Below, in pieces: positions 13,978 through 54,880 of a stretch of DNA of 64,000 bases. How positions within the stretch are numbered: the stretch's first letter is position 1; each line of letters opens with the position of its first letter. The translations under genes and the position numbers were made by a program. Origin of the DNA: Candidatus Nomurabacteria bacterium RIFCSPHIGHO2_01_FULL_36_23 (GTDB taxonomy: Bacteria > Patescibacteriota > Minisyncoccia > Phycocordibacterales > UBA9973); assembly GCA_001786745.1 (NCBI GenBank), contig MFTF01000018.1:23577-87576 (forward strand), read 5' to 3'. The notes beneath the pieces are model-generated. The model did no database searches and was not told the DNA's origin. It worked only from the letters and a program-made list of their open reading frames with translations.

Positions 13978-14682
13978 ATGGTCAAAGGAAATAAACGAGG
14001 CAAACTCATAGTTATAGACGGCACGGATGGGAGTGGAAAGGCGACCCAGACCGAACTTCTAGTGAAGGCTCTGAAGAATGAAGGGCGGAAAGTTAAAATT
14101 ATTGATTTTCCTGAATATTACGCTAATTTTTTCGGAAAATTCATCGGGCACTGTCTTTCTGAACAGTATTATAACTTTGTAAAAGTACATCCGAAGATTG
14201 CTTCTATACTTTATGCGGCGGACCGCCTTGAGTCAAAAGATAAAATTAAAAAATGGTTAAAAAACGGCTATATCGTTGTTGCCAATAGGTATGCGAGCGC
14301 CAATCAAATTCACCAAGGCGGAAAAATTGTAAATACAAAAAAGAGGGAAGCATTTATCAGATGGCTGGCAGAAATGGAATACAAAGTTTTTAAAATTCCG
14401 AAGCCAGATGTCGTGTTTTACTTAAGTGTGCCTATTCCGATTGTGTTAAAATTAATTACCGAGCGGAATAAAAATAAAAATAGAAATTATTTGGGCAAGA
14501 AAAAAGATGTGCATGAGAAAGATGTAAAATTTCTAGAAAATTCTCGCCAAAGCGCGCTCTGGCTCACCAAGACACAAAAAGGTTGGATTAAAATTGAATG
14601 TGTAAAAAACGGGAAGCTTGATACTCGTGAAAATATTCATAATAAAATTTATGAAAAAATTAAAAAAATCATCAAAAAATAA
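13978..14682 (+). CDS. tmk: Thymidylate (dTMP) kinase-like P-loop kinase
   Basis: P-loop LIVIDGTDGSGKATQ and a DR(Y/L)-type motif YAADRLES are present. Confidence 0.65.
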   Translation: MVKGNKRGKLIVIDGTDGSGKATQTELLVKALKNEGRKVKIIDFPEYYANFFGKFIGHCLSEQYYNFVKVHPKIASILYAADRLESKDKIKKWLKNGYIVVANRYASANQIHQGGKIVNTKKREAFIRWLAEMEYKVFKIPKPDVVFYLSVPIPIVLKLITERNKNKNRNYLGKKKDVHEKDVKFLENSRQSALWLTKTQKGWIKIECVKNGKLDTRENIHNKIYEKIKKIIKK

Positions 14683-15238
14683 AAAACCCGTAGTTATTTT
14701 TATTTATGGACAAATTGCAGTAGGGAAGCTTACTGTAGCAAAAATTTTAAGTAAAAAACTTGGATATAAGTTAACGCACAACCATTCATTAAATGATTTT
14801 GTTGATGAAGTATTTACTCGAGGTATGAATGCTCATAATTCAATAATTGAAAAAATAAGATATGACTTGTTAGAAAATGCAGTTAAAGCAAAAATTAATT
14901 TTGTCACTACTCATTGCTATGCACATAATTTTGTTTCTACCACTGGGCTTTCAGATTCTAAATATGTTGAAACATTAGAGAAAAAACTTACAAAATTGGG
15001 TGCAGGATTTTATCCTATTCAGCTTAAAGCTACTGATGAGGAATTATTGCGTAGAGTAAATGCGGATTCTCGCAAAGCATTTAAAAAATTAAAAGACAAA
15101 AAAATTATGAGAGAGTTAACACTCCAACACGATTGGCAAACTTCTCCCAAATTAAAAAATAATCTTATAATTGACAATACTAATCTTTCTCCCAAAAAAG
15201 TTGCACAAATGATTATTAAACATTTCAAACTGAACTAA
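14618..15238 (+). CDS. P-loop NTPase or kinase-like protein with a deviant Walker A
   Basis: Motif IYGQIAVGKLTVAKIL is GxxxxGK followed by L instead of S/T. The likely start is the internal Met at 14651. It overlaps the tmk 3' end. Confidence 0.4.
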   Translation: MILVKIFIIKFMKKLKKSSKNKKPVVIFIYGQIAVGKLTVAKILSKKLGYKLTHNHSLNDFVDEVFTRGMNAHNSIIEKIRYDLLENAVKAKINFVTTHCYAHNFVSTTGLSDSKYVETLEKKLTKLGAGFYPIQLKATDEELLRRVNADSRKAFKKLKDKKIMRELTLQHDWQTSPKLKNNLIIDNTNLSPKKVAQMIIKHFKLN

Positions 15239-15248
15239 AAAACCTATT

Positions 15249-15282
15249 TAGCATTAATAAGCGGTCGCACACTATTGCTAAA
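15249..15282. repeat. 34-nt palindrome-containing direct repeat, copy A (tagcattaataagcggtcgcacactattgctaaa); abuts the stop codon of the 15283-15846 gene
   Basis: 32/34 identical to 15857-15890. It contains the outer inverted repeat TAGCATTA/TAATGCTA. Confidence 0.85.
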
Positions 15283-15846
15283 CTAGCATAAGTTAAATTT
15301 CTTCATTAAATGCAGTTCATTGTCTATTTTATCAGCAAGAACGAATCGCACATACCTCCTGGCATTATAAAGCTCCAAAATAAATTCAATTTCATTATCG
15401 CAAGGATAAGGGAAAACCAATACAGATTTTTGAAGTTCAATGAGACCTATTTCTCGAAAATGAAAACGCAAAGAGTCACGTAACCTTTTTAATTTCTCAG
15501 GAATATCAAACATCACTATACGCCATTTCTTGTCCCATTTTGTCGGTTTTTTAATCCCCATTTTATCAATGTTAAATTTAAGAGCTTTTTGTTTTCCTTC
15601 TTTGTTTAAAATAAGAATAGTTGTTCCGTCTTTGTGATATTGTTCTTTAACTAAATGAGAAGTATATAAAGAATTGATGGCTCTCTGTAATGCTTGACGA
15701 TTTTCTTTCTCCCATTCTTTTGGTATTTGTTTCAAAATCCACAGCTGTTTCCTGGCTGATTTAGTTAGGCCAAGTGCAAGACCGGCAAGTAAAAGTAAAA
15801 GCACTTTCCTTTTTAGATTTCCTATTCTTGGCATGTTGTGTCCCAT
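15283..15846 (-). CDS. Hypothetical DNA-binding protein, family member 1: N-terminal winged-helix-like region plus C-terminal Cas2/VapD-like motif
   Basis: C-terminal motif WRIVMFDIPEKLKRLRDSLRFHFREIGLIELQKSVLVFPYP...RYVRFVLAD is shared with ORFs at 23442 and 28481. The gene is bracketed by 34-nt repeats. Confidence 0.6.
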   Translation of the reverse strand: MGHNMPRIGNLKRKVLLLLLAGLALGLTKSARKQLWILKQIPKEWEKENRQALQRAINSLYTSHLVKEQYHKDGTTILILNKEGKQKALKFNIDKMGIKKPTKWDKKWRIVMFDIPEKLKRLRDSLRFHFREIGLIELQKSVLVFPYPCDNEIEFILELYNARRYVRFVLADKIDNELHLMKKFNLC

Positions 15847-15856
15847 CTGCTTATTA

Positions 15857-15890
15857 TAGCATTAATAAGCGGTCGCATACTAATGCTAAA
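15857..15890. repeat. 34-nt palindrome-containing direct repeat, copy B (tagcattaataagcggtcgcatactaatgctaaa); 10 nt upstream of the start codon of the 15283-15846 gene
   Basis: Direct repeat of 15249-15282. Perfect 8-bp inverted termini with a 16-nt spacer. Confidence 0.85.
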
Positions 15891-15918
15891 TTGGTTTTTG
15901 CGTGGAAAAGATATATAA

Positions 15919-16434
15919 TTGAATAACAATATGAAAATTCCCATTGTTGATGAACAAGATAATTTTTTATATTATAAAGATCCCAAAGAACGTGATCCGC
16001 GCAAGGAAATTACGCGGGGCTCTGTTCTATGGGTTGTGAATGAAAGAGGAAAAATATTGGTGGCTAAACGTTCAAAAAACAAAGAACACTTCCCGAATAT
16101 TTGGGGACCTTCAGTTGCTGGGTCCCTTGAAGAAAATGAATCTTATAGGGACAATCTCATCAAGGAGGCAAAAGAAGAGATAGGGGTTAATTTAGATACA
16201 ATTATATTAGGCTCTAAAATAAGAGAATCCGATGATCACGAATATTTTAGTCAATACTTTTTTACTAAAATTTCTTCAAATACAAAATTTACTCTTCAAG
16301 AATCAGAAGTTGATGAAGTACACTGGGTTTCCCTAAAACAATTAAAAAATTGGTATCGTAAAAATCCAGAAGAATTTCTGCCCACTTTTAGCGGAAGTTT
16401 AAAAATTATTGAAAATTATGAAAATCAGAGTTAA
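15919..16434 (+). CDS. Nudix hydrolase (IDI/MutT-like)
   Basis: Nudix box GSLEENESYRDNLIKEAKEEIGV. Confidence 0.75.
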   Translation: MNNNMKIPIVDEQDNFLYYKDPKERDPRKEITRGSVLWVVNERGKILVAKRSKNKEHFPNIWGPSVAGSLEENESYRDNLIKEAKEEIGVNLDTIILGSKIRESDDHEYFSQYFFTKISSNTKFTLQESEVDEVHWVSLKQLKNWYRKNPEEFLPTFSGSLKIIENYENQS

Positions 16435-23398: not shown

Positions 23399-23432
23399 AT
23401 AACAAACTATCGCGGCCGCGAAAATATGTTAT
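23399..23432. repeat. 34-nt palindrome-containing direct repeat (ataacaaactatcgcggccgcgaaaatatgttat); 9 nt upstream of the 23442 gene
   Basis: 28/34 identical to 23912-23945. It has inverted termini ATAACA/TGTTAT and a central perfect palindrome CGCGGCCGCG. Confidence 0.85.
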
Positions 23433-23441
23433 GATAAATCT

Positions 23442-23915
23442 ATGGAACTGACAACACTAGATCACTTAATAGCGTTTTTGCTTTCTGCTCGTTCAACGAG
23501 GATATATAGAAAAATATTATGGTCAAGAGTGTATATGAGACAAAAAAACTTAAGCACCGAAGCTTTTCGCCAGCATATTTACCGTTTACATAAAAAGGGA
23601 ATTATTGAAGCAAAAGGTAATAAAGTTTATATTTATCGAGAAAATCTTTTAAAGTTTTCAGTCAAAAGGAATTCAATAATGAAAAACATTTTTCCAGACA
23701 AAACAGAAAAAGTTCTCATATCTTTTGATATACCCGAGAAAAAGAAAAAAATGAGAGATTGGTTACGGAATCAAATAAAGTATTGGGATTTTGAAATGAT
23801 TCACGAAAGTTTATGGCTTGGGTATGGGCCACTACCCAAAGCGTTTAATGATAGATTAAAACATCTTGGTATTTATAAAAATGTTCGGGTATTTAGAGTT
23901 AGAAAAATAGCATAA
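23442..23915 (+). CDS. Hypothetical DNA-binding protein, family member 2 (winged-helix plus C-terminal Cas2/VapD-like motif)
   Basis: N-terminus FRQHIYRLHKKGIIEAKGNKVYIY is wHTH-like. The C-terminus VLISFDIPEKKKKMRDWLRNQIKYWDFEMIHESLWLGYGP...VRVFRV is paralogous to 15283 and 28481. Confidence 0.6.
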   Translation: MELTTLDHLIAFLLSARSTRIYRKILWSRVYMRQKNLSTEAFRQHIYRLHKKGIIEAKGNKVYIYRENLLKFSVKRNSIMKNIFPDKTEKVLISFDIPEKKKKMRDWLRNQIKYWDFEMIHESLWLGYGPLPKAFNDRLKHLGIYKNVRVFRVRKIA

Positions 23916-23945
23916 CAATATATCGCGGTTACGAAAAAATGTTAT
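23912..23945. repeat. 34-nt palindrome-containing direct repeat (ataacaatatatcgcggttacgaaaaaatgttat); overlaps the stop codon of the 23442 gene
   Basis: Direct repeat of 23399-23432. Confidence 0.85.
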
Positions 23946-23984
23946 ATATGGATTTATGAAGGAAAAGTGTAGTAAAATAAATAA

Positions 23985-24566
23985 ATGCACCACATTTATC
24001 ACACGGAAGGAATAATATTGGGGAGCAAGAACTTCGGAGAAACGGAAAGATATTATTCCATATTTACCAAAAATCTGGGAATGATTTATGCTTCGGCGCA
24101 AGGGGTGCGTAAAATGTCTTCAAAATTGCGTTTCATGTTGCAGGATTTTGCCTACCTTAAAATTGATCTGGTGCAGGGCAAAGATTTCTGGCGCGTGACA
24201 AATGTGTCAAAGACAAATAAATTAGAACAGATTGCTAAACAGTCAGAACATTTTGTAGTTTTTTTTAATATTGCGCGGTTATTGAAACGTTTGCTGGCTG
24301 GCGTTGAACCTAATCCAGCTTTATTTCTTGATCTTTTAAACGGTTTATTTATTTTAGAAAAATCAGAAACGAAGGAAGAGTTGCATAACATTGAAGTAAT
24401 TATTGTTTTGCGCATACTTAATAATTTGGGATATATTGGTGAAAATGAGACGTTGCAAAATATAATTAAATCGCCCTTTGAAAAAGATTTAATCTTTGAA
24501 GTTTCAAGAAGTAGAACTAAAATACTCTCGGCAATTAATAAGGCGCTAAAAGAGACACATCTGTAA
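23985..24566 (+). CDS. recO: DNA repair protein RecO
   Basis: RecO N-terminal OB pattern IILGSKNFGETERYYSIFTKNLGMIYASAQGVRK. Confidence 0.75.
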   Translation: MHHIYHTEGIILGSKNFGETERYYSIFTKNLGMIYASAQGVRKMSSKLRFMLQDFAYLKIDLVQGKDFWRVTNVSKTNKLEQIAKQSEHFVVFFNIARLLKRLLAGVEPNPALFLDLLNGLFILEKSETKEELHNIEVIIVLRILNNLGYIGENETLQNIIKSPFEKDLIFEVSRSRTKILSAINKALKETHL

Positions 24567-26567: not shown

Positions 26568-27959
26568 ATGAAAGAAGAAAAATTAGATAAAAATAATTTA
26601 ATGGAAAAAATAGTTTCACTTTGCAAAAGGCGAGGCTTTGTTTTTCAAGGTTCGGAGATTTACGGAGGATTTGCCGGAACCTATGATTGGGGTTCGCTTG
26701 GTGTTGCCCTTAAAAGAAATATTACTGATACTTGGAATAAGGCGATGCAAGATCATCCAAATATGACTTTCCTTGACTCAAGTATTTTTACTTCTGGAAA
26801 AGTTTGGGAAGCGAGTGGGCATGTCTCAGGATTTTCAGATCCTCTCATTGTTTGTAATAAATGCAAAGAAAAATCTCGCGCTGATCATTTACTGGAAAAT
26901 ATTGGAATAAAAGCTGATGAAAAATTGAGCGAATTAGAAATCAACAAGATTTTTAACGAGAGTAGAAATAAAATAAAATGTCCAGGATGTGGTGCTAAAG
27001 ATTTTGGAAAAGTTCATGCTTCAAATTTACTTGCTACCTCTAATCTCGGAATGCTCGATGAAAATGAACAGCAAGTATATCTTCGTGGAGAAACTGCGCA
27101 AGGTATTTATATAAATTATAAAAATGTTTTAGATACTGGTTTTGTGTCTATTCCTTTTGGTATTGCTCAAATAGGGAAGGCTTTTCGTAATGAAATTAGT
27201 CCACGTCAGTTTTTATTTCGTAAGCGTGAATTTGAGCAGATGGAAATGCAGTATTTTTGTAATCCAAATGAAGCAATGGATAATTATGAAATTTGGAAAA
27301 AAGAAAGAATGGAATATTATCAAATGTTGGGAATAAATCCTAAAAAGCTTAGATTTAAACCACACGAAAACCTTGTTTTTTATGCGAAAGCCGCCTGTGA
27401 CATAGAATATGAATTTCCTTTCGGTTGGAATGAGCTTGAAGGAATACATTATCGTGGAGATTATGATCTAACTCAGCATCAAAAATTCTCTGGTGTAGAT
27501 ATGAAATTTTGTGACGAAGAAACAAAAGAAAAATATATTCCACATATAGTTGAAACATCAGTTGGGGTGGACCGAACAGTACTTATGGTTTTATGTGATG
27601 CTTATTGTGAGGACAAAATAGGAGAAAGTGAAAGAGTTGTTTTAAAATTTCCTCCCAAACTTGCTCCGATAGTATGCGCCGTATCTCCATTACTTAAAAA
27701 CAAGCCAGAACTTATTAGTAAAGCCAAAGATGTTTTTGATGTTCTCAAAGCCGAGTTCGGTCGTGTGGCGTGGGACGACAATGGCAATATCGGCAAACGT
27801 TATCGCCGTCAAGATGAAATCGGCACGCCATATTGCATTGTGGTTGATTTTGATACTCTTGCTGACAATACTGTGACCGTGCGAGATCGTGATACTGGAG
27901 AACAAGAGAGAATAAAAGTAGAAAATTTGAAAAGTTATATAAAAGAGAAAATACAATGA
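26568..27959 (+). CDS. glyQS: Glycyl-tRNA synthetase (alpha2 homodimeric type)
   Basis: Motifs RRGFVFQGSEIYGGFAGTYDWGSLG and class II motifs 2 and 3 are present, with a C-terminal anticodon-binding domain. Confidence 0.85.
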   Translation: MKEEKLDKNNLMEKIVSLCKRRGFVFQGSEIYGGFAGTYDWGSLGVALKRNITDTWNKAMQDHPNMTFLDSSIFTSGKVWEASGHVSGFSDPLIVCNKCKEKSRADHLLENIGIKADEKLSELEINKIFNESRNKIKCPGCGAKDFGKVHASNLLATSNLGMLDENEQQVYLRGETAQGIYINYKNVLDTGFVSIPFGIAQIGKAFRNEISPRQFLFRKREFEQMEMQYFCNPNEAMDNYEIWKKERMEYYQMLGINPKKLRFKPHENLVFYAKAACDIEYEFPFGWNELEGIHYRGDYDLTQHQKFSGVDMKFCDEETKEKYIPHIVETSVGVDRTVLMVLCDAYCEDKIGESERVVLKFPPKLAPIVCAVSPLLKNKPELISKAKDVFDVLKAEFGRVAWDDNGNIGKRYRRQDEIGTPYCIVVDFDTLADNTVTVRDRDTGEQERIKVENLKSYIKEKIQ

Positions 27960-28387
27960 AAAAAGGAGAAGATTACACTGGCATTGCTGTAGTATATTTA
28001 TATCATGATGGTAAGGGTAATGTACTACTTGCTAAAAGAAGTAATAACGCTAGAGATGAACAAGGTAGATGGGATATTAGTGGCGGTGGAGTAGAGTTTG
28101 GAGATACTATTGAAAATACTTTAAGAAAAGAAATTAAAGAAGAATACTGTACTGATGTTTCTGATTATCAATTTTTGGGGTATAGAGATGTGCATAGAGA
28201 ACATGATGGTGGAAAAACACACTGGATTGCCCTCGATTTTAAAGTTCTTATAAATAAAGAAAAAGCTAAAATTGGCGAACTACATAAATTTGATGCTTTG
28301 GAATGGTTTACCTTAAAAAATTTGCCCAGTCCAGTGCATTCTCAATTTCCAAATTTTTTAGAAAAATATAAAGATAAATTACCGTAA
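27956..28387 (+). CDS. Nudix hydrolase (MutT-like)
   Basis: Nudix box GGGVEFGDTIENTLRKEIKEEY. Confidence 0.75.
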   Translation: MKKGEDYTGIAVVYLYHDGKGNVLLAKRSNNARDEQGRWDISGGGVEFGDTIENTLRKEIKEEYCTDVSDYQFLGYRDVHREHDGGKTHWIALDFKVLINKEKAKIGELHKFDALEWFTLKNLPSPVHSQFPNFLEKYKDKLP

Positions 28388-28422: not shown

Positions 28423-28457
28423 ATTTACTTAACATACGCTATAGCGTGAGTCTAGTA
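28423..28457. repeat. 35-nt palindrome-containing direct repeat (atttacttaacatacgctatagcgtgagtctagta); 23 nt upstream of the 28481 gene
   Basis: 29/35 identical to 29104-29138. Core ATACGCTATAGCGT (13/14 palindrome). Confidence 0.8.
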
Positions 28458-28480
28458 AATTATGATAAGATAATTAAATT

Positions 28481-29070
28481 ATGGGGAATATAGAAAAAGA
28501 AGTAAAAAAAAGAGACAAAAGAGCAAGGTTGCAAAAGATTATTTTATCCACTATTTTTGCTCTTGGTGGCTTAAGTGTCGCTTTAATAGCTCCGAAAATG
28601 ACAAAAGTATTGGTAAAGTTTGAACCGGAATTTATGAAAGATAAGTATAGAAAATACTCTTTTAATAGATCACTGGTTAGACTCAAAGATGCTGGTTTTA
28701 TTGTTTTTGAAAAAACAGAAAGAGGGAATTTTGCCTGTCTGACCCCAAAAGGAAAAGAAAAGTTGCGCCAGCTAACAATTCATAATTTTAAAATAAAAAA
28801 ACCTAAAAATGGGATGGAAAATGGAGATTACTCATGTTTGATATTAAAGAAAAAAGAAAAAGCACTAGAGATAAAATTCGGCATAATTTATTTAAAATTG
28901 GATTTATAAGATTGCAAGATAGCGTCTGGGTATATCCTTATGATTGTGAAGATTTTATTAACTTAATGAAAGCTGATTTTAAAATAGGGAAAGACTTGTT
29001 GTATGTAGTAGCGGATAAAATTGAAAATGATAAATTCCTCGCCCAACATTTTAAATTATTTAATAGTTAA
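28481..29070 (+). pseudogene. Family member 3 of the wHTH plus Cas2/VapD-like family, disrupted by a -1 frameshift in an A5 run near 28805-28809 (track ORFs 28481..28909 and 28834..29070)
   Basis: Frame 1 upstream of 28834 reads KWDGKWRLLMFDIKEK, matching KWDKKWRIVMFDIPEK of member 1. The upstream frame carries the wHTH part. It could be a sequencing error in a homopolymer. Confidence 0.5.
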
Positions 29071-29103: not shown

Positions 29104-29138
29104 ATTTACATAAGATACGCTATAGCGTAGTTATAGTA
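29104..29138. repeat. 35-nt palindrome-containing direct repeat (atttacataagatacgctatagcgtagttatagta); 33 nt downstream of the 28481-29070 gene
   Basis: Perfect 14-bp palindrome TACGCTATAGCGTA. Direct repeat of 28423-28457. Confidence 0.8.
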
Positions 29139-29180
29139 GATTTGAGTTCAATAAAAAACTTTAGTATAATACTTATTATG

Positions 29181-30446
29181 CGATTTTCAAAAAAGGTTTT
29201 AAAAAACGGATTGCGGGTTGTTATTGTGCCGATGAAGGATAATCCAACGGTCACGGTTTTGGTTTTAGTAGAAGCAGGATCAAAATATGAAACAAAAAAG
29301 GTAAATGGCATCTCCCATTTTCTAGAACATATGTGTTTTAAGGGGACAATAAAAAGACCCAAAGCCATTGATATTTCAAAAGAACTGGATGCCTTAGGGA
29401 GTCAATACAATGCCTTTACTGCGCAAGAATATACGGGATATTATGCGAAGTCCGATGCTTGGCATTTCAAGCAAATTTTTGATATTGTGTCGGATATATA
29501 TCTTAACTCTACTTTTCCTGAGGCAGAAATGCAGAGAGAAAAAGGCGTAATCACAGAGGAGATAAATATGTATAAAGATATGCCCCAGAGACACGTTCAG
29601 GATTTAATGACAAAGTTGCTTTATAAAAATCAGCCAGCTGGATGGAATGTTGCCGGTGAAAAGACAAATATTTTAAAAATGAAGCGCAATGATTTTGTGA
29701 AATATAAAAAGGAGCATTATGTTCCAGAAGCCACCGTATTAATAATAGCTGGACAGGTAACAGAGAAAGAAGTAATGAGCAAGATAAATAAAATTTTTGG
29801 CAAAATTCCACGAGGAAAGAAAGGTCATAAAATAAAAGTAAAAGAAAAACAAATAAAACCGCAAGTATTAATTAATTTTAAAAAAACAGACCAGACGCAT
29901 TTTGTTTTGAGTGTACGTACCTATGATTTATTTAATAAAAAAAATGCAATTCTTTCTGTTCTTGGCGGAGTGCTTGGTGGGGGAATGAGCTCACGCTTTT
30001 TTCAAAAACTTCGCGAAGAAATGGGTGTTGGTTATTATGTTCATGCGCACAATGATTCTTTTACTGACCATGGGTTTTTTCAAATTTCAGCCGGAGTGGA
30101 TAATAAAAGAATAAATGAAGTTGTCGGGGTTATTCTTGATGAATGTAATAAATTAAAAAAAGAAAAAATTAGCGCAGAAGAATTAAATAAAGTAAAAGAG
30201 TACTTGATAGGTAACATGAAACTATCTTTAGAATCGACTGACGATATAGCTAATTTTTATGGTGGGCAGGAACTTTTAAAACATGAACTGAAAAATGTGA
30301 AAGAAAAAGCAAAAGAAATCCGTAAAGTCACCGCCAGCCAAATCCAAAATCTGGCCAAAAATATTTTCCAAAACAAAAAGCTCAATTTAGCGCTCATTGG
30401 GCCTTTTAAAGAAAAATCAAAATTCTTAAAATTACTTAAATTTTAA
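29181..30446 (+). CDS. M16-family (insulinase/pitrilysin-like) zinc peptidase
   Basis: Inverted zincin motif HFLEHMCFKGT. The track ORF starts at 29142; the Met at 29181 (MRFSKKVLKNGLRVV) is the more likely start. Confidence 0.75.
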   Translation, partial: RFSKKVLKNGLRVVIVPMKDNPTVTVLVLVEAGSKYETKKVNGISHFLEHMCFKGTIKRPKAIDISKELDALGSQYNAFTAQEYTGYYAKSDAWHFKQIFDIVSDIYLNSTFPEAEMQREKGVITEEINMYKDMPQRHVQDLMTKLLYKNQPAGWNVAGEKTNILKMKRNDFVKYKKEHYVPEATVLIIAGQVTEKEVMSKINKIFGKIPRGKKGHKIKVKEKQIKPQVLINFKKTDQTHFVLSVRTYDLFNKKNAILSVLGGVLGGGMSSRFFQKLREEMGVGYYVHAHNDSFTDHGFFQISAGVDNKRINEVVGVILDECNKLKKEKISAEELNKVKEYLIGNMKLSLESTDDIANFYGGQELLKHELKNVKEKAKEIRKVTASQIQNLAKNIFQNKKLNLALIGPFKEKSKFLKLLKF

Positions 30447-37612: not shown

Positions 37613-37704
37613 TGGCGGAGCCGGCTGGATTCGAACCAGCGGAGGGGTTTAAAGCCCTCACCTCTTTAGCAAAGAGGCACCTTAGACCGCTCAGACACGG
37701 CTCC
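37613..37704 (-). tRNA. tRNA-Ser (anticodon GCU), type II, CCA encoded
   Basis: Minus-strand fold: acceptor GGAGCCG/CGGCTCC, D-loop GAGCGGTCTAA, anticodon stem CCTCT/AGAGG with loop TTGCTAA, a long variable arm, and T-arm GCTGG-TTCGAAT-CCAGC. Discriminator G plus CCA. Confidence 0.75.
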
Positions 37705-47719: not shown

Positions 47720-48205
47720 ATGAAAAAAATAAGTTTCAAAAAAGGTTTCACCTCGGCTTGCCGAAGGCGAGACGGATTTACATTAATTGAACTCTTGGTC
47801 GTGGTTGCCATCATCGGTATTTTAGCTTCCGTTGTGCTCGCTAGCCTAAACAGCGCTAGAACGAAAGGTGCTGACGCGGCCGTTAAATCTAGTATGGCTA
47901 ACTCTCGTGCTCAGGCAGAGCTATTCTATGATACTGGACAGACTTACGCTGGTGTTTGTGCTGTTGGCGCGACTACTATTAATGCAATCTTAGCTGGTGC
48001 TGTCAAGCAAAGTGCTGATGCAGACCAAGTTGTTGGTGATGATGCAGCTGCTACGGCAACCGTAGCTGTCTGTAATGACAGTGCTGCCGCTTGGGCATCC
48101 GAAATGCCACTCAAGGGTGGAAGTTTCTTCTGTGTGGATAGTAGTGGAAAAAGTCAGGTTAATACCGCTGTTGGCCTGGCGGCTGCTGCAGACTACGCTT
48201 GTTAA
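47720..48205 (+). CDS. Type IV major pilin (PilA-like), paralog 1
   Basis: Motif GFTLIELLVVVAIIGILASVVLASLNSAR and a Cys-containing C-terminal D-region. Confidence 0.8.
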   Translation: MKKISFKKGFTSACRRRDGFTLIELLVVVAIIGILASVVLASLNSARTKGADAAVKSSMANSRAQAELFYDTGQTYAGVCAVGATTINAILAGAVKQSADADQVVGDDAAATATVAVCNDSAAAWASEMPLKGGSFFCVDSSGKSQVNTAVGLAAAADYAC

Positions 48206-48338
48206 TAACTATTAACATATTTAATTGTTGCAATAAAAAACAAAAACTACCCTTTTGATTTATCCACAGGGTGTTTTTTGTTTTTATGAATGTGCTATAA
48301 TATAAAAGTTCATTATAAATTTTAACTTTTTTATAAAT

Positions 48339-48851
48339 ATGTTAAAAAATTCTAAAGGTTTGGTCTTGGGGGATTCGAAAGGTTTTACATTAATTGAGCT
48401 CTTGGTCGTGGTTGCTATCATCGGTATTTTGGCGTCGGTTGTACTGGCTAGTTTAAACAGCGCCAGAAACAAAGCTGTTGATGTCGCTATAAAGTCCGCA
48501 ATGGCTAACTCTCGCGCGCAAGCAGAGCTATATTACTTTCCAGATGAAACATATAATAATCTCTGCACCGCTGTCGGTGGTGTTGGCCCTATGGTTTTAA
48601 ATGCTGCGCAGAAATTAAATATAGCCGCAGTTGTGGGTGATAATACTCAGCCATTTATTTATGATGATACAGGTACTCTTGCTGGTGCTTCCGTTTGTCA
48701 CGACAGTGATACTGCTTGGGCAGCTGTTACATCCTTAAAGAATCCTACGCTTCCCCCTGGCGGTCCTTTTGCCGGCGGATGGTGTGTTGATTCTACTGGG
48801 GCCTCTAAGGAAGCAACTGCTCTTCTTTCTGGCGAATATGTTTGTCCGTAA
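48339..48851 (+). CDS. Type IV major pilin, paralog 2
   Basis: Motif KGFTLIELLVVVAIIGILASVVLASLNSAR and a variable C-terminus with Cys residues. Confidence 0.8.
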   Translation: MLKNSKGLVLGDSKGFTLIELLVVVAIIGILASVVLASLNSARNKAVDVAIKSAMANSRAQAELYYFPDETYNNLCTAVGGVGPMVLNAAQKLNIAAVVGDNTQPFIYDDTGTLAGASVCHDSDTAWAAVTSLKNPTLPPGGPFAGGWCVDSTGASKEATALLSGEYVCP

Positions 48852-48889
48852 TAAAAATTAATTTTTATTAATTTTAATATTGTAAAAAA

Positions 48890-49438
48890 ATGAATTTCAC
48901 GGAAAATTTTAAGAAAGGTTCCGCCTCGGCTTGCCGAAGGCGAGACGGGTTTACATTAATTGAACTCTTGGTCGTAGTTGCCATCATTGGCATTTTAGCT
49001 TCAGTGGTTTTGGCTTCGCTTAATTCAGCCCGAGGCAAGGGCGCTGATGCTACTATAAAATCAAACCTAGTCAATATGCGTCCGCAAGCGGAGATTCTTT
49101 ATGATTCATGGGGAAATTATGCTGTGGACGCCACGCCTACATACTTTGCTCTTGGTCAATGTACAAATGTTGGTACTGGAGCGGATACCCTTTTCTCTAA
49201 TCCTACCATCTGGAGTCAGATAACATCTGCTTATAATGCTGGTGCCGGAATTGCATCTACTAGGTGTTATTCATCATCTGGAGCTTATGCAGTTGCAGTA
49301 CAGCTTAAAACTAGTGATGGGAACACAGCTCCATTACCAGATTCTTGGTGTGTAGATAGCACAGGAGCAAGTAAGGCATATACCTGGGCTGCAGCTGAGA
49401 CAATCGCTACTTCCATCAACGCTACTTTTTGCCGATAG
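48890..49438 (+). CDS. Type IV major pilin, paralog 3
   Basis: Motif DGFTLIELLVVVAIIGILASVVLASLNSAR. Its leader is shared with paralog 1. Confidence 0.8.
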   Translation: MNFTENFKKGSASACRRRDGFTLIELLVVVAIIGILASVVLASLNSARGKGADATIKSNLVNMRPQAEILYDSWGNYAVDATPTYFALGQCTNVGTGADTLFSNPTIWSQITSAYNAGAGIASTRCYSSSGAYAVAVQLKTSDGNTAPLPDSWCVDSTGASKAYTWAAAETIATSINATFCR

Positions 49439-49453
49439 TTTAAGGAAGGCAAG

Positions 49454-49478
49454 CAAGGATACTCCTTGATATTTTTTA
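49454..49478 (+). terminator. Intrinsic terminator after the pilin triplet (caagga-tac-tccttg plus TTTTTT)
   Basis: Perfect 6-bp stem and a U-tract 3 nt downstream. Confidence 0.6.
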
Positions 49479-49519
49479 TTAAATTAGTTTTTTAGTTTAT
49501 ATATTGTTATAATACGGAA

Positions 49520-50353
49520 ATGGAAAGTCTTGTAGTATTTATCTTTTTTATCTTTGGCCTGATTATTGGGAGTTTTTTAAATGTTGTAATTTACCGATAT
49601 AATACGCAAAAATCCTTCGGTGGGCGGAGCGCGTGTATGTCTTGCCAAAATAAACTTTACTGGTATGAACTTATGCCGCTTATTAGTTTTTTAGGGTTGA
49701 AGGGGAGATGCCGAAGTTGTAAAACTAAAATTTCAATTCAGTATCCGCTGGTGGAGTTGGCTACTGGATTAATTTTTGCCTTACTTTTTCTAAAACTTTC
49801 CGCCCAAGACGGATCTGCCTATGGCGGACAAAATATTTATAATTTTTTTAATTTAGCATTCATCGCTACTTATGCTTATTACTCCACAATGTTTTCACTG
49901 CTTATAATCATCGCAGCCTATGACCTTCGGCATAAAATAATTCCAGATGCTCTTTCTCTGGTTTTTGGTATTCTCGCATTTTTAGGCCTATTTTTTTTCA
50001 TTAGTTATAGTCTGCCTGCGCAGACAGGTTTTTATCTGCATCTTCCATCAATTTTTGAATTCTTGTCGGGCGGATTGATCGCTTTGCCCTTTGCTTTATT
50101 TTGGCTTATATCAAGGGGTACTTGGATGGGGCTGGGAGATGCTAAGCTGGCAGTGGGTTTGGGTTGGCTCCTCGGTTTATCTCGGGCGCTCTCTGGTCTA
50201 GTGGTCGCTTTTTGGTCCGGGGCTATAATAGGGCTTTTTCTTATTATTTTTTCAAAAAAGTATGGAATGAAAAGTGAAATTCCTTTTGCTCCGTTTTTAG
50301 TTTTGGGCGCGCTTTTAGCATTTCTTTTTGAATTACACCTTTTTGCTTTTTAA
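49520..50353 (+). CDS. pilD: Prepilin peptidase PilD (A24 family)
   Basis: N-terminal tetracysteine CMSCQNK...CRSCKTK and a polytopic TM domain with conserved Asp residues. Confidence 0.8.
   Translation: MESLVVFIFFIFGLIIGSFLNVVIYRYNTQKSFGGRSACMSCQNKLYWYELMPLISFLGLKGRCRSCKTKISIQYPLVELATGLIFALLFLKLSAQDGSAYGGQNIYNFFNLAFIATYAYYSTMFSLLIIIAAYDLRHKIIPDALSLVFGILAFLGLFFFISYSLPAQTGFYLHLPSIFEFLSGGLIALPFALFWLISRGTWMGLGDAKLAVGLGWLLGLSRALSGLVVAFWSGAIIGLFLIIFSKKYGMKSEIPFAPFLVLGALLAFLFELHLFAF

Positions 50354-52735: not shown

Positions 52736-54880
<2,145 letters not shown>

Follow-up and report, generated by a model that had tools for sequence, protein, structure and literature searches.

What kind of system is a small gene that stands between two near-identical palindromes? 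The question is raised by a 64,000-nucleotide (nt) stretch of contig MFTF01000018.1 from Candidatus Nomurabacteria bacterium RIFCSPHIGHO2_01_FULL_36_23 (here called the window), in which an earlier note had described three such gene cassettes. We find that the arrangement is real and family-wide: a predicted PaaX-type regulator is encoded in a layout like that of repetitive extragenic palindromic (REP) sequences around the genes of REP-associated tyrosine transposases (RAYTs).

A short PaaX-like protein between two palindromic sites

The first cassette consists of a minus-strand open reading frame (ORF) for a protein of 187 amino acids (aa) and two flanking 34-nt sites (Table 1). The earlier description of near-identical palindromic 34-mers on both sides of this ORF was borne out and its coordinates were verified: the two sites are identical at 32 of 34 positions and differ at 2. 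The upstream, promoter-proximal site has the arms TAGCATTA-N16-TAATGCTA, and its gene-proximal end lies 10 nt from the ATG; the downstream site carries a single arm mismatch (TATTGCTA). At up to 3 mismatches, the 34-mer has just these two matches in 64 kb (0 expected from 100 shuffles), and the degenerate pattern of its subfamily (family 1, see below) detects no window site beyond this pair. Three window palindromes in total reach at least 13 of 16 pairs, two of them being cassette sites; shuffled sequence has none.

The encoded protein is a ‘mini-PaaX’, in which a winged helix is joined to a Cas2-fold domain and no C-terminal effector domain follows. The C-terminal half (aa 102–174) matches PF20803, the ‘PaaX protein central Cas2-like domain’ of Pfam, with an E value of 7.2e-19 and 68 bits against a cut-off of 24, and the chain terminates ~13 aa beyond this domain. 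Overall, a winged-helix-like half spans ~aa 1–95 and a Cas2-like ferredoxin-fold domain ~aa 102–187. An AlphaFold model computed from a 63-sequence alignment has a predicted local distance difference test score (pLDDT) of ~90 in the C-terminal domain, with the element order beta-alpha-beta-beta-alpha-beta, and moderate confidence in the N-terminal half (pLDDT 54–74); single-sequence prediction gave an unusable model (pLDDT 37). In a Foldseek search of the PDB, the best matches were Cas2 structures (2ivy, 3exc, 5zyf and 8ia4, which include SSO1404, SSO8090 and S. pyogenes Cas2; probability ~1.0, target TM score 0.5–0.66), and E. coli PaaX (8a39) aligned to the model over 146 columns. Asp114, Arg123 and Ser141 are invariant across the family and align with the YD..R..QxSVF signature of Cas2; in the family profile, Asp114 is aligned to the catalytic aspartate of the Cas2 protein 3exc. 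The profile and fold searches thus place the C-terminal domain in the PaaX/Cas2 group and not in an unrelated fold, which supports the Cas2 likeness, including the position of the catalytic aspartate, that had been read from the letters. For the N-terminal half, Pfam gave no match to PF07848, the PaaX winged helix, at E ≤1 in the cassette 1 protein; weak MarR/SlyA-type profile matches (E 0.01–0.2, family profile) support the proposed winged helix.

Curated models for full-length PaaX and for Cas2 remain below threshold: TIGR02277 gives 21 bits (cut-off 264.55) and TIGR01573 (Cas2) 18 (cut-off 24.5), and the two window paralogs reach 18–19 bits with PF09827 (Cas2; cut-off 23.8), a match that some relatives bear in precomputed form. 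The family is large, with 2,908 representatives at 50% identity (E ≤1e-3), nearly all of 180–200 aa. All 80 retrieved genome loci come from Patescibacteria-type metagenome-assembled genomes, and the cassette 1 protein is 100% identical to one from Candidatus Nomurabacteria RIFCSPHIGHO2_02_FULL_37. Family genes occur in several copies per genome, three of them in this window. Viral contigs (IMG/VR) yielded a single locus, so the family is not phage-borne. Patescibacteria have tiny genomes with few recognisable regulators, yet this family is both large and multi-copy.

Homologues are bracketed by palindromes of their own

Loci of homologues were collected with a 13-sequence alignment, a 38-sequence alignment being too diverse. 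The sample comprised 80 genome loci at 42–80% identity and 2 further loci, 82 evaluable in all. Flanks were compared in a core-anchored test against a cross-locus null, the 99th percentile of which is 24 of 34 identical positions; it was used in place of an earlier test that took the best palindrome per flank and missed true cases (L001–L004 and cassette 3). Cognate palindromes stand on both flanks at 62 of the 82 loci, and about ten of the remaining loci have a more diverged site on each flank. Homologues elsewhere are therefore bracketed by their own palindromes, as the earlier note had supposed.

What the sites of the family have in common is an 8-nt centre, RCKA|TMGY, while their arms vary between subfamilies. 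In a logo built from 124 sites, C is present at position −3 in 100% and G at +3 in 99%; positions ±9–11 are A/T-rich, CA and TG occupy ±12–13, and the arms are otherwise variable. The 1.2 Mb of fetched loci contain 158 palindromes centred on this core, 107 of which have a family gene no more than 250 nt away; shuffles contain 0. Paralogous family-1 cassettes are found in at least six genomic contexts; they share the palindromes and nothing outside them. Arm similarity tracks the identity of the N-terminal domain (Mantel rho 0.20, with 0 of 500 permutations as high), which agrees with the idea that each protein co-evolves with its own sites, and core similarity tracks the C-terminal domain (rho 0.31). 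This pair of correlations fits an arrangement with winged helices on the arms and a Cas2-fold dimer on the core. Because the predicted 34–40-bp target of each member can be read from the flanks of its gene, the family offers a large natural set of protein–site pairs with a common core and variable arms, usable for deriving a recognition code of PaaX-type and Cas2-fold DNA binders.

Family-1 sites are built of two half-site types, AGCATTA-GTGY-RCGA and, as reverse complement, AGCAATA-AGAA-RCGG, which combine as ab, aa or bb (examples are L158 5111, L107 7339 and the window sites at 15249 and 15857). Some genomes also carry two family-1 paralogs that are 75–80% identical, such as L001 and L002, which share an 813-kb contig; this would allow for heterodimers or for two specificities.

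Copies without a gene: solo and empty sites

We scanned metagenomes with the family-1 pattern AGCAWTA-N4-RCGRYCGY-N4-TAWTGCT and recovered at least 131 sites at no fewer than 118 loci. Among the 131 matches listed, to which all counts of solo sites in this text refer, 40 adjoin a family gene, 47 are solo, with at least 700 nt on each side free of a family gene, and 44 lie too near a contig end to judge. Convergent genes surround 18 of the solo sites, co-directional genes 20 and divergent genes 1, and 8 lie inside ORF calls. Most stand directly 3′ of a stop codon, often as the sole sequence between convergent genes; those between co-directional genes are typically found 3–40 nt past the upstream stop and ~38–64 nt before the next start. 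Solo sites are kept at orthologous positions where the neighbouring proteins are 60–80% identical and the adjacent DNA has diverged, for example between the convergent Fpg and SpoU genes, after RluA in five loci, and between RnpA and YidC. Such conservation of position beside diverged flanks indicates that solo sites are old and under constraint. No gene remnant was found beside the solo sites listed, the one candidate (L098) being ScpB. In some cases, a solo copy shares its contig with a cassette (L147 with L158, L105 with L112, and L176); this 64-kb window holds no solo copy of the cassette 1 site.

Two further configurations were observed. At L146 (4035–4113), two core-centred palindromes of different arm types form a tandem solo pair 58 nt apart, with no family gene nearby. 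In distant genomes, the ArgRS of which is 34% identical (L136 ~9469 and L145 ~10879), a family-1-type palindrome without a cassette occupies the junction of ArgRS and SHMT, the same operon boundary that bears the cassette in Nomurabacteria.

The canonical family-1 cassette lies between Tmk/kinase and (NUDIX)/dUTPase-ArgRS genes in ~18 loci. At two orthologous junctions without the cassette, L196 and L187, exactly one palindrome is present; its left flank is that of the downstream copy and its right flank that of the upstream copy in occupied loci. Empty sites with a single repeat copy, which the earlier note had proposed to look for, thus exist. Cassettes 2 and 3, in turn, are missing together with both palindromes from related genomes: in L108, the MBL and RecO genes overlap as TAATG, and in L100, the GlyRS and M16 genes abut. 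The site–gene–site arrangement thus behaves as one unit in gain and loss.

These data also dispose of the simplest alternative, that a chance or generic dispersed repeat happens to flank the gene. The 34-mer does occur on its own elsewhere in related genomes, and to this extent the earlier concern about a dispersed repeat was justified. It is, however, low-copy and found nowhere else in the window, where no match is expected by chance; the association holds across subfamilies with different arms, 62 of 82 homologues being bracketed by arms of their own; and core-centred palindromes, 158 against none after shuffling, cluster near family genes (107). We regard this explanation as refuted and its probability as negligible.

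The upstream site overlaps a predicted promoter

The upstream site of family-1 cassettes ends, in gene orientation, with GCTATAAT, and the start codon follows 6–7 nt on in all nine cassettes (9/9), which lie in different contexts; the downstream site ends with GCTAAAT. Across subfamilies, the distance from the site centre to the ATG has a mode of 26 nt. The element TGCTATAAT in the gene-proximal arm of the cassette 1 site is predicted to be the extended −10 of a leaderless promoter. Given its distance from the start codon, the transcript would begin downstream of the palindrome, and a protein bound there would occlude its own promoter. The upstream palindrome of family-1 cassettes is thereby predicted to lie outside its own transcript, which argues for action on DNA.

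The opposite side of the same site faces the candidate promoter of the divergent NUDIX-dUTPase-ArgRS genes. This TTGGTT-17-TATAAT block is kept beside the palindrome whether or not the orthologous locus holds a cassette; its candidate −35 matches 3 of 6 positions, and a simple promoter scan lists neither this block nor the extended −10. TATAAT-like hexamers without a Shine-Dalgarno sequence also stand 6–11 nt 5′ of the start codons of NUDIX, M16 peptidase and RecO genes (15914–15931, 29166–29181 and 23970–23985, respectively), and many transcripts of this genome may have no leader or hardly any. A NUDIX gene adjoins the upstream site in two of the three cassettes (15919–16434; 27956–28387), and the one at cassette 1 is carried by some and lacking from others of the genomes that otherwise share this gene order. 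That such genes move along with the cassettes was rejected, a Nudix box being found in only 2 of 150 immediate neighbours.

Relation to PaaX, Cas2 and REP/RAYT systems

PaaX is a close counterpart in protein and site design. It binds the palindrome TGATTC-N27-GAATCA, the half-sites of which lie far apart within 39 bp, and by steric hindrance it represses the promoter of its own gene; its middle region has been described as a dimerisation motif (PMC9493321). Mini-PaaX has the homologous central Cas2-like domain, including the WDxKW motif, preceded by a winged helix, with the structural match extending over 146 columns (PF07848 + PF20803 + PF08223 in PaaX; PDB 8a39, 3l09). At the sequence level, a comparable operator layout can be read at the predicted promoter of the gene, with a 34-nt palindrome whose arm forms TGCTATAAT 6 nt from the ATG. 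The differences are substantial: mini-PaaX has 187 aa compared with ~310, and it lacks the PF08223 effector domain (phenylacetyl-CoA) and a PF07848 match. No paa genes lie near cassette 1, and the Cas2-type aspartate is invariant in the mini-PaaX family. Furthermore, mini-PaaX sites stand on both sides of the gene and, as solo copies, at the 3′ ends of other genes.

With Cas2 and VapD, the family shares the ferredoxin-like fold and the D114/R123/S141 signature. In contrast to Cas2, mini-PaaX falls below the curated Cas2 thresholds and is fused to a winged helix, and its ‘repeats’ are two copies ~600 bp apart around its own gene. There is no CRISPR array in the window, in which repeat families have two copies each, the one with three lying in pilin genes. 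No cas genes stand beside the loci inspected (the window, L001 and L002, all with housekeeping neighbours), although no cas1 model search was made across all loci. PADLOC gave no defence system: its Cas2 matches were weak (E 1e-5 to 4e-3), a winged-helix match to AbiEi was the only other, and partner genes are absent. Members of the family are nevertheless labelled ‘CRISPR-associated endonuclease Cas2’ (NCBI/JGI) or ‘PaaX’, with P0273, P0278, P0282, P0325, P0342 and P0074 among those called Cas2. As the loci inspected have no CRISPR context, the Cas2 labels on family members are likely a systematic misannotation in Patescibacteria, and both labels would mislead surveys of CRISPR or of aromatic catabolism in the Candidate Phyla Radiation.

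In organisation, the cassettes appear to resemble REP/RAYT loci most, although the protein is unrelated to RAYT. In RAYT loci, a cognate palindrome invariably stands on either side of the gene, often at the stop codon; the repeats covary with the protein and stay palindromic through complementary changes (PMC2817692). All three window cassettes likewise have the gene between two cognate palindromes (20–40 nt in REP/RAYT systems), and the family shows covariation, with extragenic copies seen in related genomes. Vertical inheritance, stable synteny and occasional gain or loss of the unit are further parallels (PMC2817692). Mini-PaaX is not, however, an HUH/Y1 transposase, since Pfam, NCBIfam and fold searches return only PaaX_M and Cas2. 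Its sites are near-symmetric and not an inverted pair of asymmetric REPs, they have no GTAG head, and they probably number a few per genome at most as compared with tens to hundreds, with solo copies that are positionally conserved. IS200/IS605 elements offer a further parallel: the cassette is a ~650–720-bp unit that holds a single small ORF between terminal palindromes, and is absent as a whole from some relatives. Unlike those elements, it has no TnpA/TnpB homology, carries the same palindrome at both ends and gives no sign of recent transposition. Autoregulated winged-helix repressors (AbiEi-type antitoxins and the MarR family) are comparable in the weak MarR/SlyA and AbiEi matches and in the palindrome over the gene's own promoter, but not in the second site past the stop codon, the lack of a partner toxin gene, the Cas2-fold dimerisation domain or the 34–40-bp site with a family-wide core. 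In the literature searched, we found no account of the family or of its site–gene–site arrangement, in keeping with the earlier impression that this is not a described system.

Proposed mode of action and competing explanations

We propose that mini-PaaX would act as a dimeric, site-specific DNA binder with widely spaced operators, autorepression and boundary sites; taken as a whole, this model, which is built from sequence and predicted structure, is in our judgement evenly poised. A symmetric protein dimer would sit on double-stranded DNA at each 34–40-bp palindrome, its two winged helices reading the variable outer arms and its Cas2-fold dimer spanning the conserved centre. The gene and its two flanking sites would form a single evolutionary unit. 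At the upstream site, which overlaps the predicted extended −10, binding would lead to autorepression; the same site abuts the candidate −35 of the divergent NUDIX/dUTPase operon. At the downstream site and at solo sites, on gene 3′ ends, the bound protein might mark or insulate the boundaries of transcription units, for instance as a roadblock between convergent genes. Binding to the duplex would be its primary mode, ahead of a purely structural role of the palindromes. Against the latter speak the weak hairpins that the window sites form as single-stranded DNA (−3 to −6.6 kcal/mol) and the results on inner arms, G:U bias, T-runs and Rfam given below.

Several observations weigh against this proposal. 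Sites between convergent genes are not what a classical repressor regulon leads one to expect, and the roadblock is a conjecture of ours. The paired copies at one locus show 57 symmetric compensatory double changes, compared with ~14 expected and 5–11 in slid controls. Such changes hint at selection or a mutational bias for self-complementarity, through a hairpin, a cruciform or template switching, and they are not obviously predicted by a single protein that reads both copies. A simple homodimer does not explain the internal asymmetry of family-1 sites. The invariant Cas2 signature of Asp, Arg and Ser means that a catalytic role may still be in play, and the absence of cassettes 2 and 3 as whole units suits an inserted element as well as a regulator.

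A first alternative is a system like REP/RAYT or IS200 with a different enzyme. A Cas2-fold nuclease or nickase would act on the palindromes, which it might recognise in hairpin or cruciform form, and would serve their spread, maintenance or excision. Autonomy would rest with the gene and its palindrome pair, and a solo palindrome would be a non-autonomous copy of this unit or its footprint. We consider this unlikely, yet deserving of serious weight. The layout is that of RAYT loci (PMC2817692), with bracketing in 62 of 82 homologues and compensatory changes; solo copies are extragenic and mostly at gene 3′ ends; the unit boundaries coincide exactly with the outer ends of the palindromes; and the single-palindrome empty site, the absence of entire cassettes 2 and 3 where the neighbour genes of relatives overlap or abut, the decaying window copies (one frameshifted, one with a degenerate site) and the invariant Cas2-type aspartate can all be accommodated. 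An element that spreads, however, is hard to reconcile with the low copy number, the lack of a solo copy in the window, solo sites that are old and positionally conserved and not recently proliferated, synteny of family-1 cassettes in ~18 loci and near-absence from viral contigs (1 match). Nothing recognisable in the protein points to HUH, DDE, tyrosine or serine recombinase chemistry, and the nuclease role is hypothetical. A broader notion, to which we attach still less probability and which we regard as doubtful, is that of a new class of palindrome-associated element, in which a Cas2-fold protein recognises, and perhaps cuts or duplicates, ~34–40-bp palindromic repeats. By analogy, the relation between the site–gene–site and single-site states would be formally that of repeat duplication in CRISPR spacer integration. 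If the Cas2-fold domain indeed acts on palindromes, Cas2 would be tied to palindromic repeats outside CRISPR; the family would be a free-living relative of the Cas2–repeat partnership, bearing on the origin of CRISPR repeats and of the adaptation module, and would give the Candidate Phyla Radiation a counterpart of REP/RAYT that uses an unrelated enzyme.

The 13 + 8 + 13 nt geometry of the palindromes recalls tyrosine-recombinase sites and raises the idea of a cassette moved by a host site-specific recombinase, with the palindromes as lox/dif/attC-type sites of inverted arms and an 8-bp centre. Integration of a circle made up of the gene and a single site into a solo site of the chromosome would yield site–gene–site; occupied and single-site states with exactly matching flanks are the expected products, and solo sites could be the landing pads. 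We hold this to be improbable. The centre is often perfectly symmetric, or its asymmetry is opposed in the two copies, and therefore provides no directionality; the arms covary with the protein of the cassette itself and not with a common host recombinase; and the empty sites of cassettes 2 and 3 are devoid of any palindrome. Plain deletion between direct repeats would likewise leave one site, and no recombinase gene lies beside the cassettes in the loci inspected, although no systematic search was made. The palindromes might instead function as RNA hairpins, that is, as terminators or 3′-end stabilisers, with the gene link being secondary or the protein an RNA-binding or RNA-cleaving factor of the Cas2/VapD kind; some Cas2/VapD proteins are RNases, according to the descriptions of PDB 3exc and 3ui3. 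Placement of solo sites just past stop codons, often alone between convergent genes, would suit such a role, as would folding of the sites as RNA (on average −14 to −17 kcal/mol, z ~−5 to −6.5). Downstream cassette copies also show a moderate bias of G:T over A:C arm mismatches (50 vs 24). Against this, co-directional solo sites among the matches listed show no G:U bias (19 vs 20), nor do upstream copies, and the upstream copy lies outside the predicted transcript. The inner arms of family-1 sites are conserved yet non-complementary, and subfamily-specific arms are difficult to square with a generic terminator. A T-run, defined as 5 or more T among the first 8 nt past the stem, is present in just 17% of 94 tails, taken in both directions from the 47 solo sites listed. 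A canonical intrinsic terminator was rejected, the window sites not being flagged by a terminator scan, and Rfam 15 at gathering score gave as sole window match a tRNA (37616–37704). The hairpin explanation thus strikes us as very improbable.

Cassettes 2 and 3 and other window features

Both paralogs were located by tblastn in the window (Table 1). They have the same architecture as cassette 1, as had been claimed; the accompanying statement that the three repeat sequences are entirely different does not stand, since all three have a G+C-rich palindromic centre (GCGGTCGC, CGCGGCCGCG and CGCTATAGCG) that fits the family core. None of the fetched loci has a site resembling that of cassette 2 or cassette 3 at up to 7 substitutions. 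Cassette 2 looks decayed: its short protein has 24% identity to the cassette 1 protein, and its downstream site has the degenerate core CGCGGTTACG instead of CGCGGCCGCG. The reading frame of cassette 3 is broken in an A-rich stretch at ~28795–28835 (aaaataaaaaaacctaaaaatggg), which leaves the N-terminal and Cas2-like halves in different frames; the break could reflect a pseudogene, a homopolymer assembly error or slippage.

Table 1 Coordinates of the cassettes and candidate promoter elements in the window
Feature	Position	Strand	Remarks
Cassette 1 downstream 34-nt site	15249–15282		Abuts the stop codon of the gene
Cassette 1 gene, mini-PaaX, 187 aa	15283–15846	−	ATG start
Extended −10-like element TGCTATAAT	15853–15861	−	In gene-proximal arm of upstream site; 6 nt to ATG
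Cassette 1 upstream (promoter-proximal) palindromic 34-nt site	15857–15890		TAGCATTA-ATAA-GCGGTCGC-ATAC-TAATGCTA-AA on the + strand
Candidate promoter of divergent NUDIX-dUTPase-ArgRS genes	15891–15919	+	TTGGTT, 17 nt, TATAAT; 1 nt past upstream site
Cassette 2 upstream site	23399–23432		ATAACA-N-CGCGGCCGCG-N-TGTTAT
Cassette 2 gene, diverged 157-aa paralog	23442–23915	+	PaaX_M (PF20803), E 2.5e-10
Cassette 2 downstream site	23912–23945		Overlaps stop codon; degenerate core CGCGGTTACG
Cassette 3 upstream 39-nt site	28423–28461		Core CGCTATAGCG
Cassette 3 gene, frameshifted	28481–29070	+	Two ORFs, 28481–28909 and 28834–29070; PF20803, E 1.3e-12
Cassette 3 downstream 39-nt site	29104–29142		82% identity to upstream copy

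The neighbours of cassette 1 are genes for a kinase, thymidylate kinase, SHMT, NUDIX, dUTPase and ArgRS. The kinase gene (14618–15238) is convergent, and the downstream site begins 10 nt past its stop codon. The third strong palindrome of the window, AAGAAGCAGAACCTCTACTGAGAGGTTCTGCTTCTC (53501–53536), lies within a 713-aa ORF (52739–54880) and is without the family core. Elsewhere, three tandem type IV pilin-like genes (47720–50353) share a repeat of 221 nt at their 5′ ends, which codes for the GFTLIELLVVVAIIGILA N-terminus of a prepilin, and they are followed by a PilD-like multi-pass membrane ORF.

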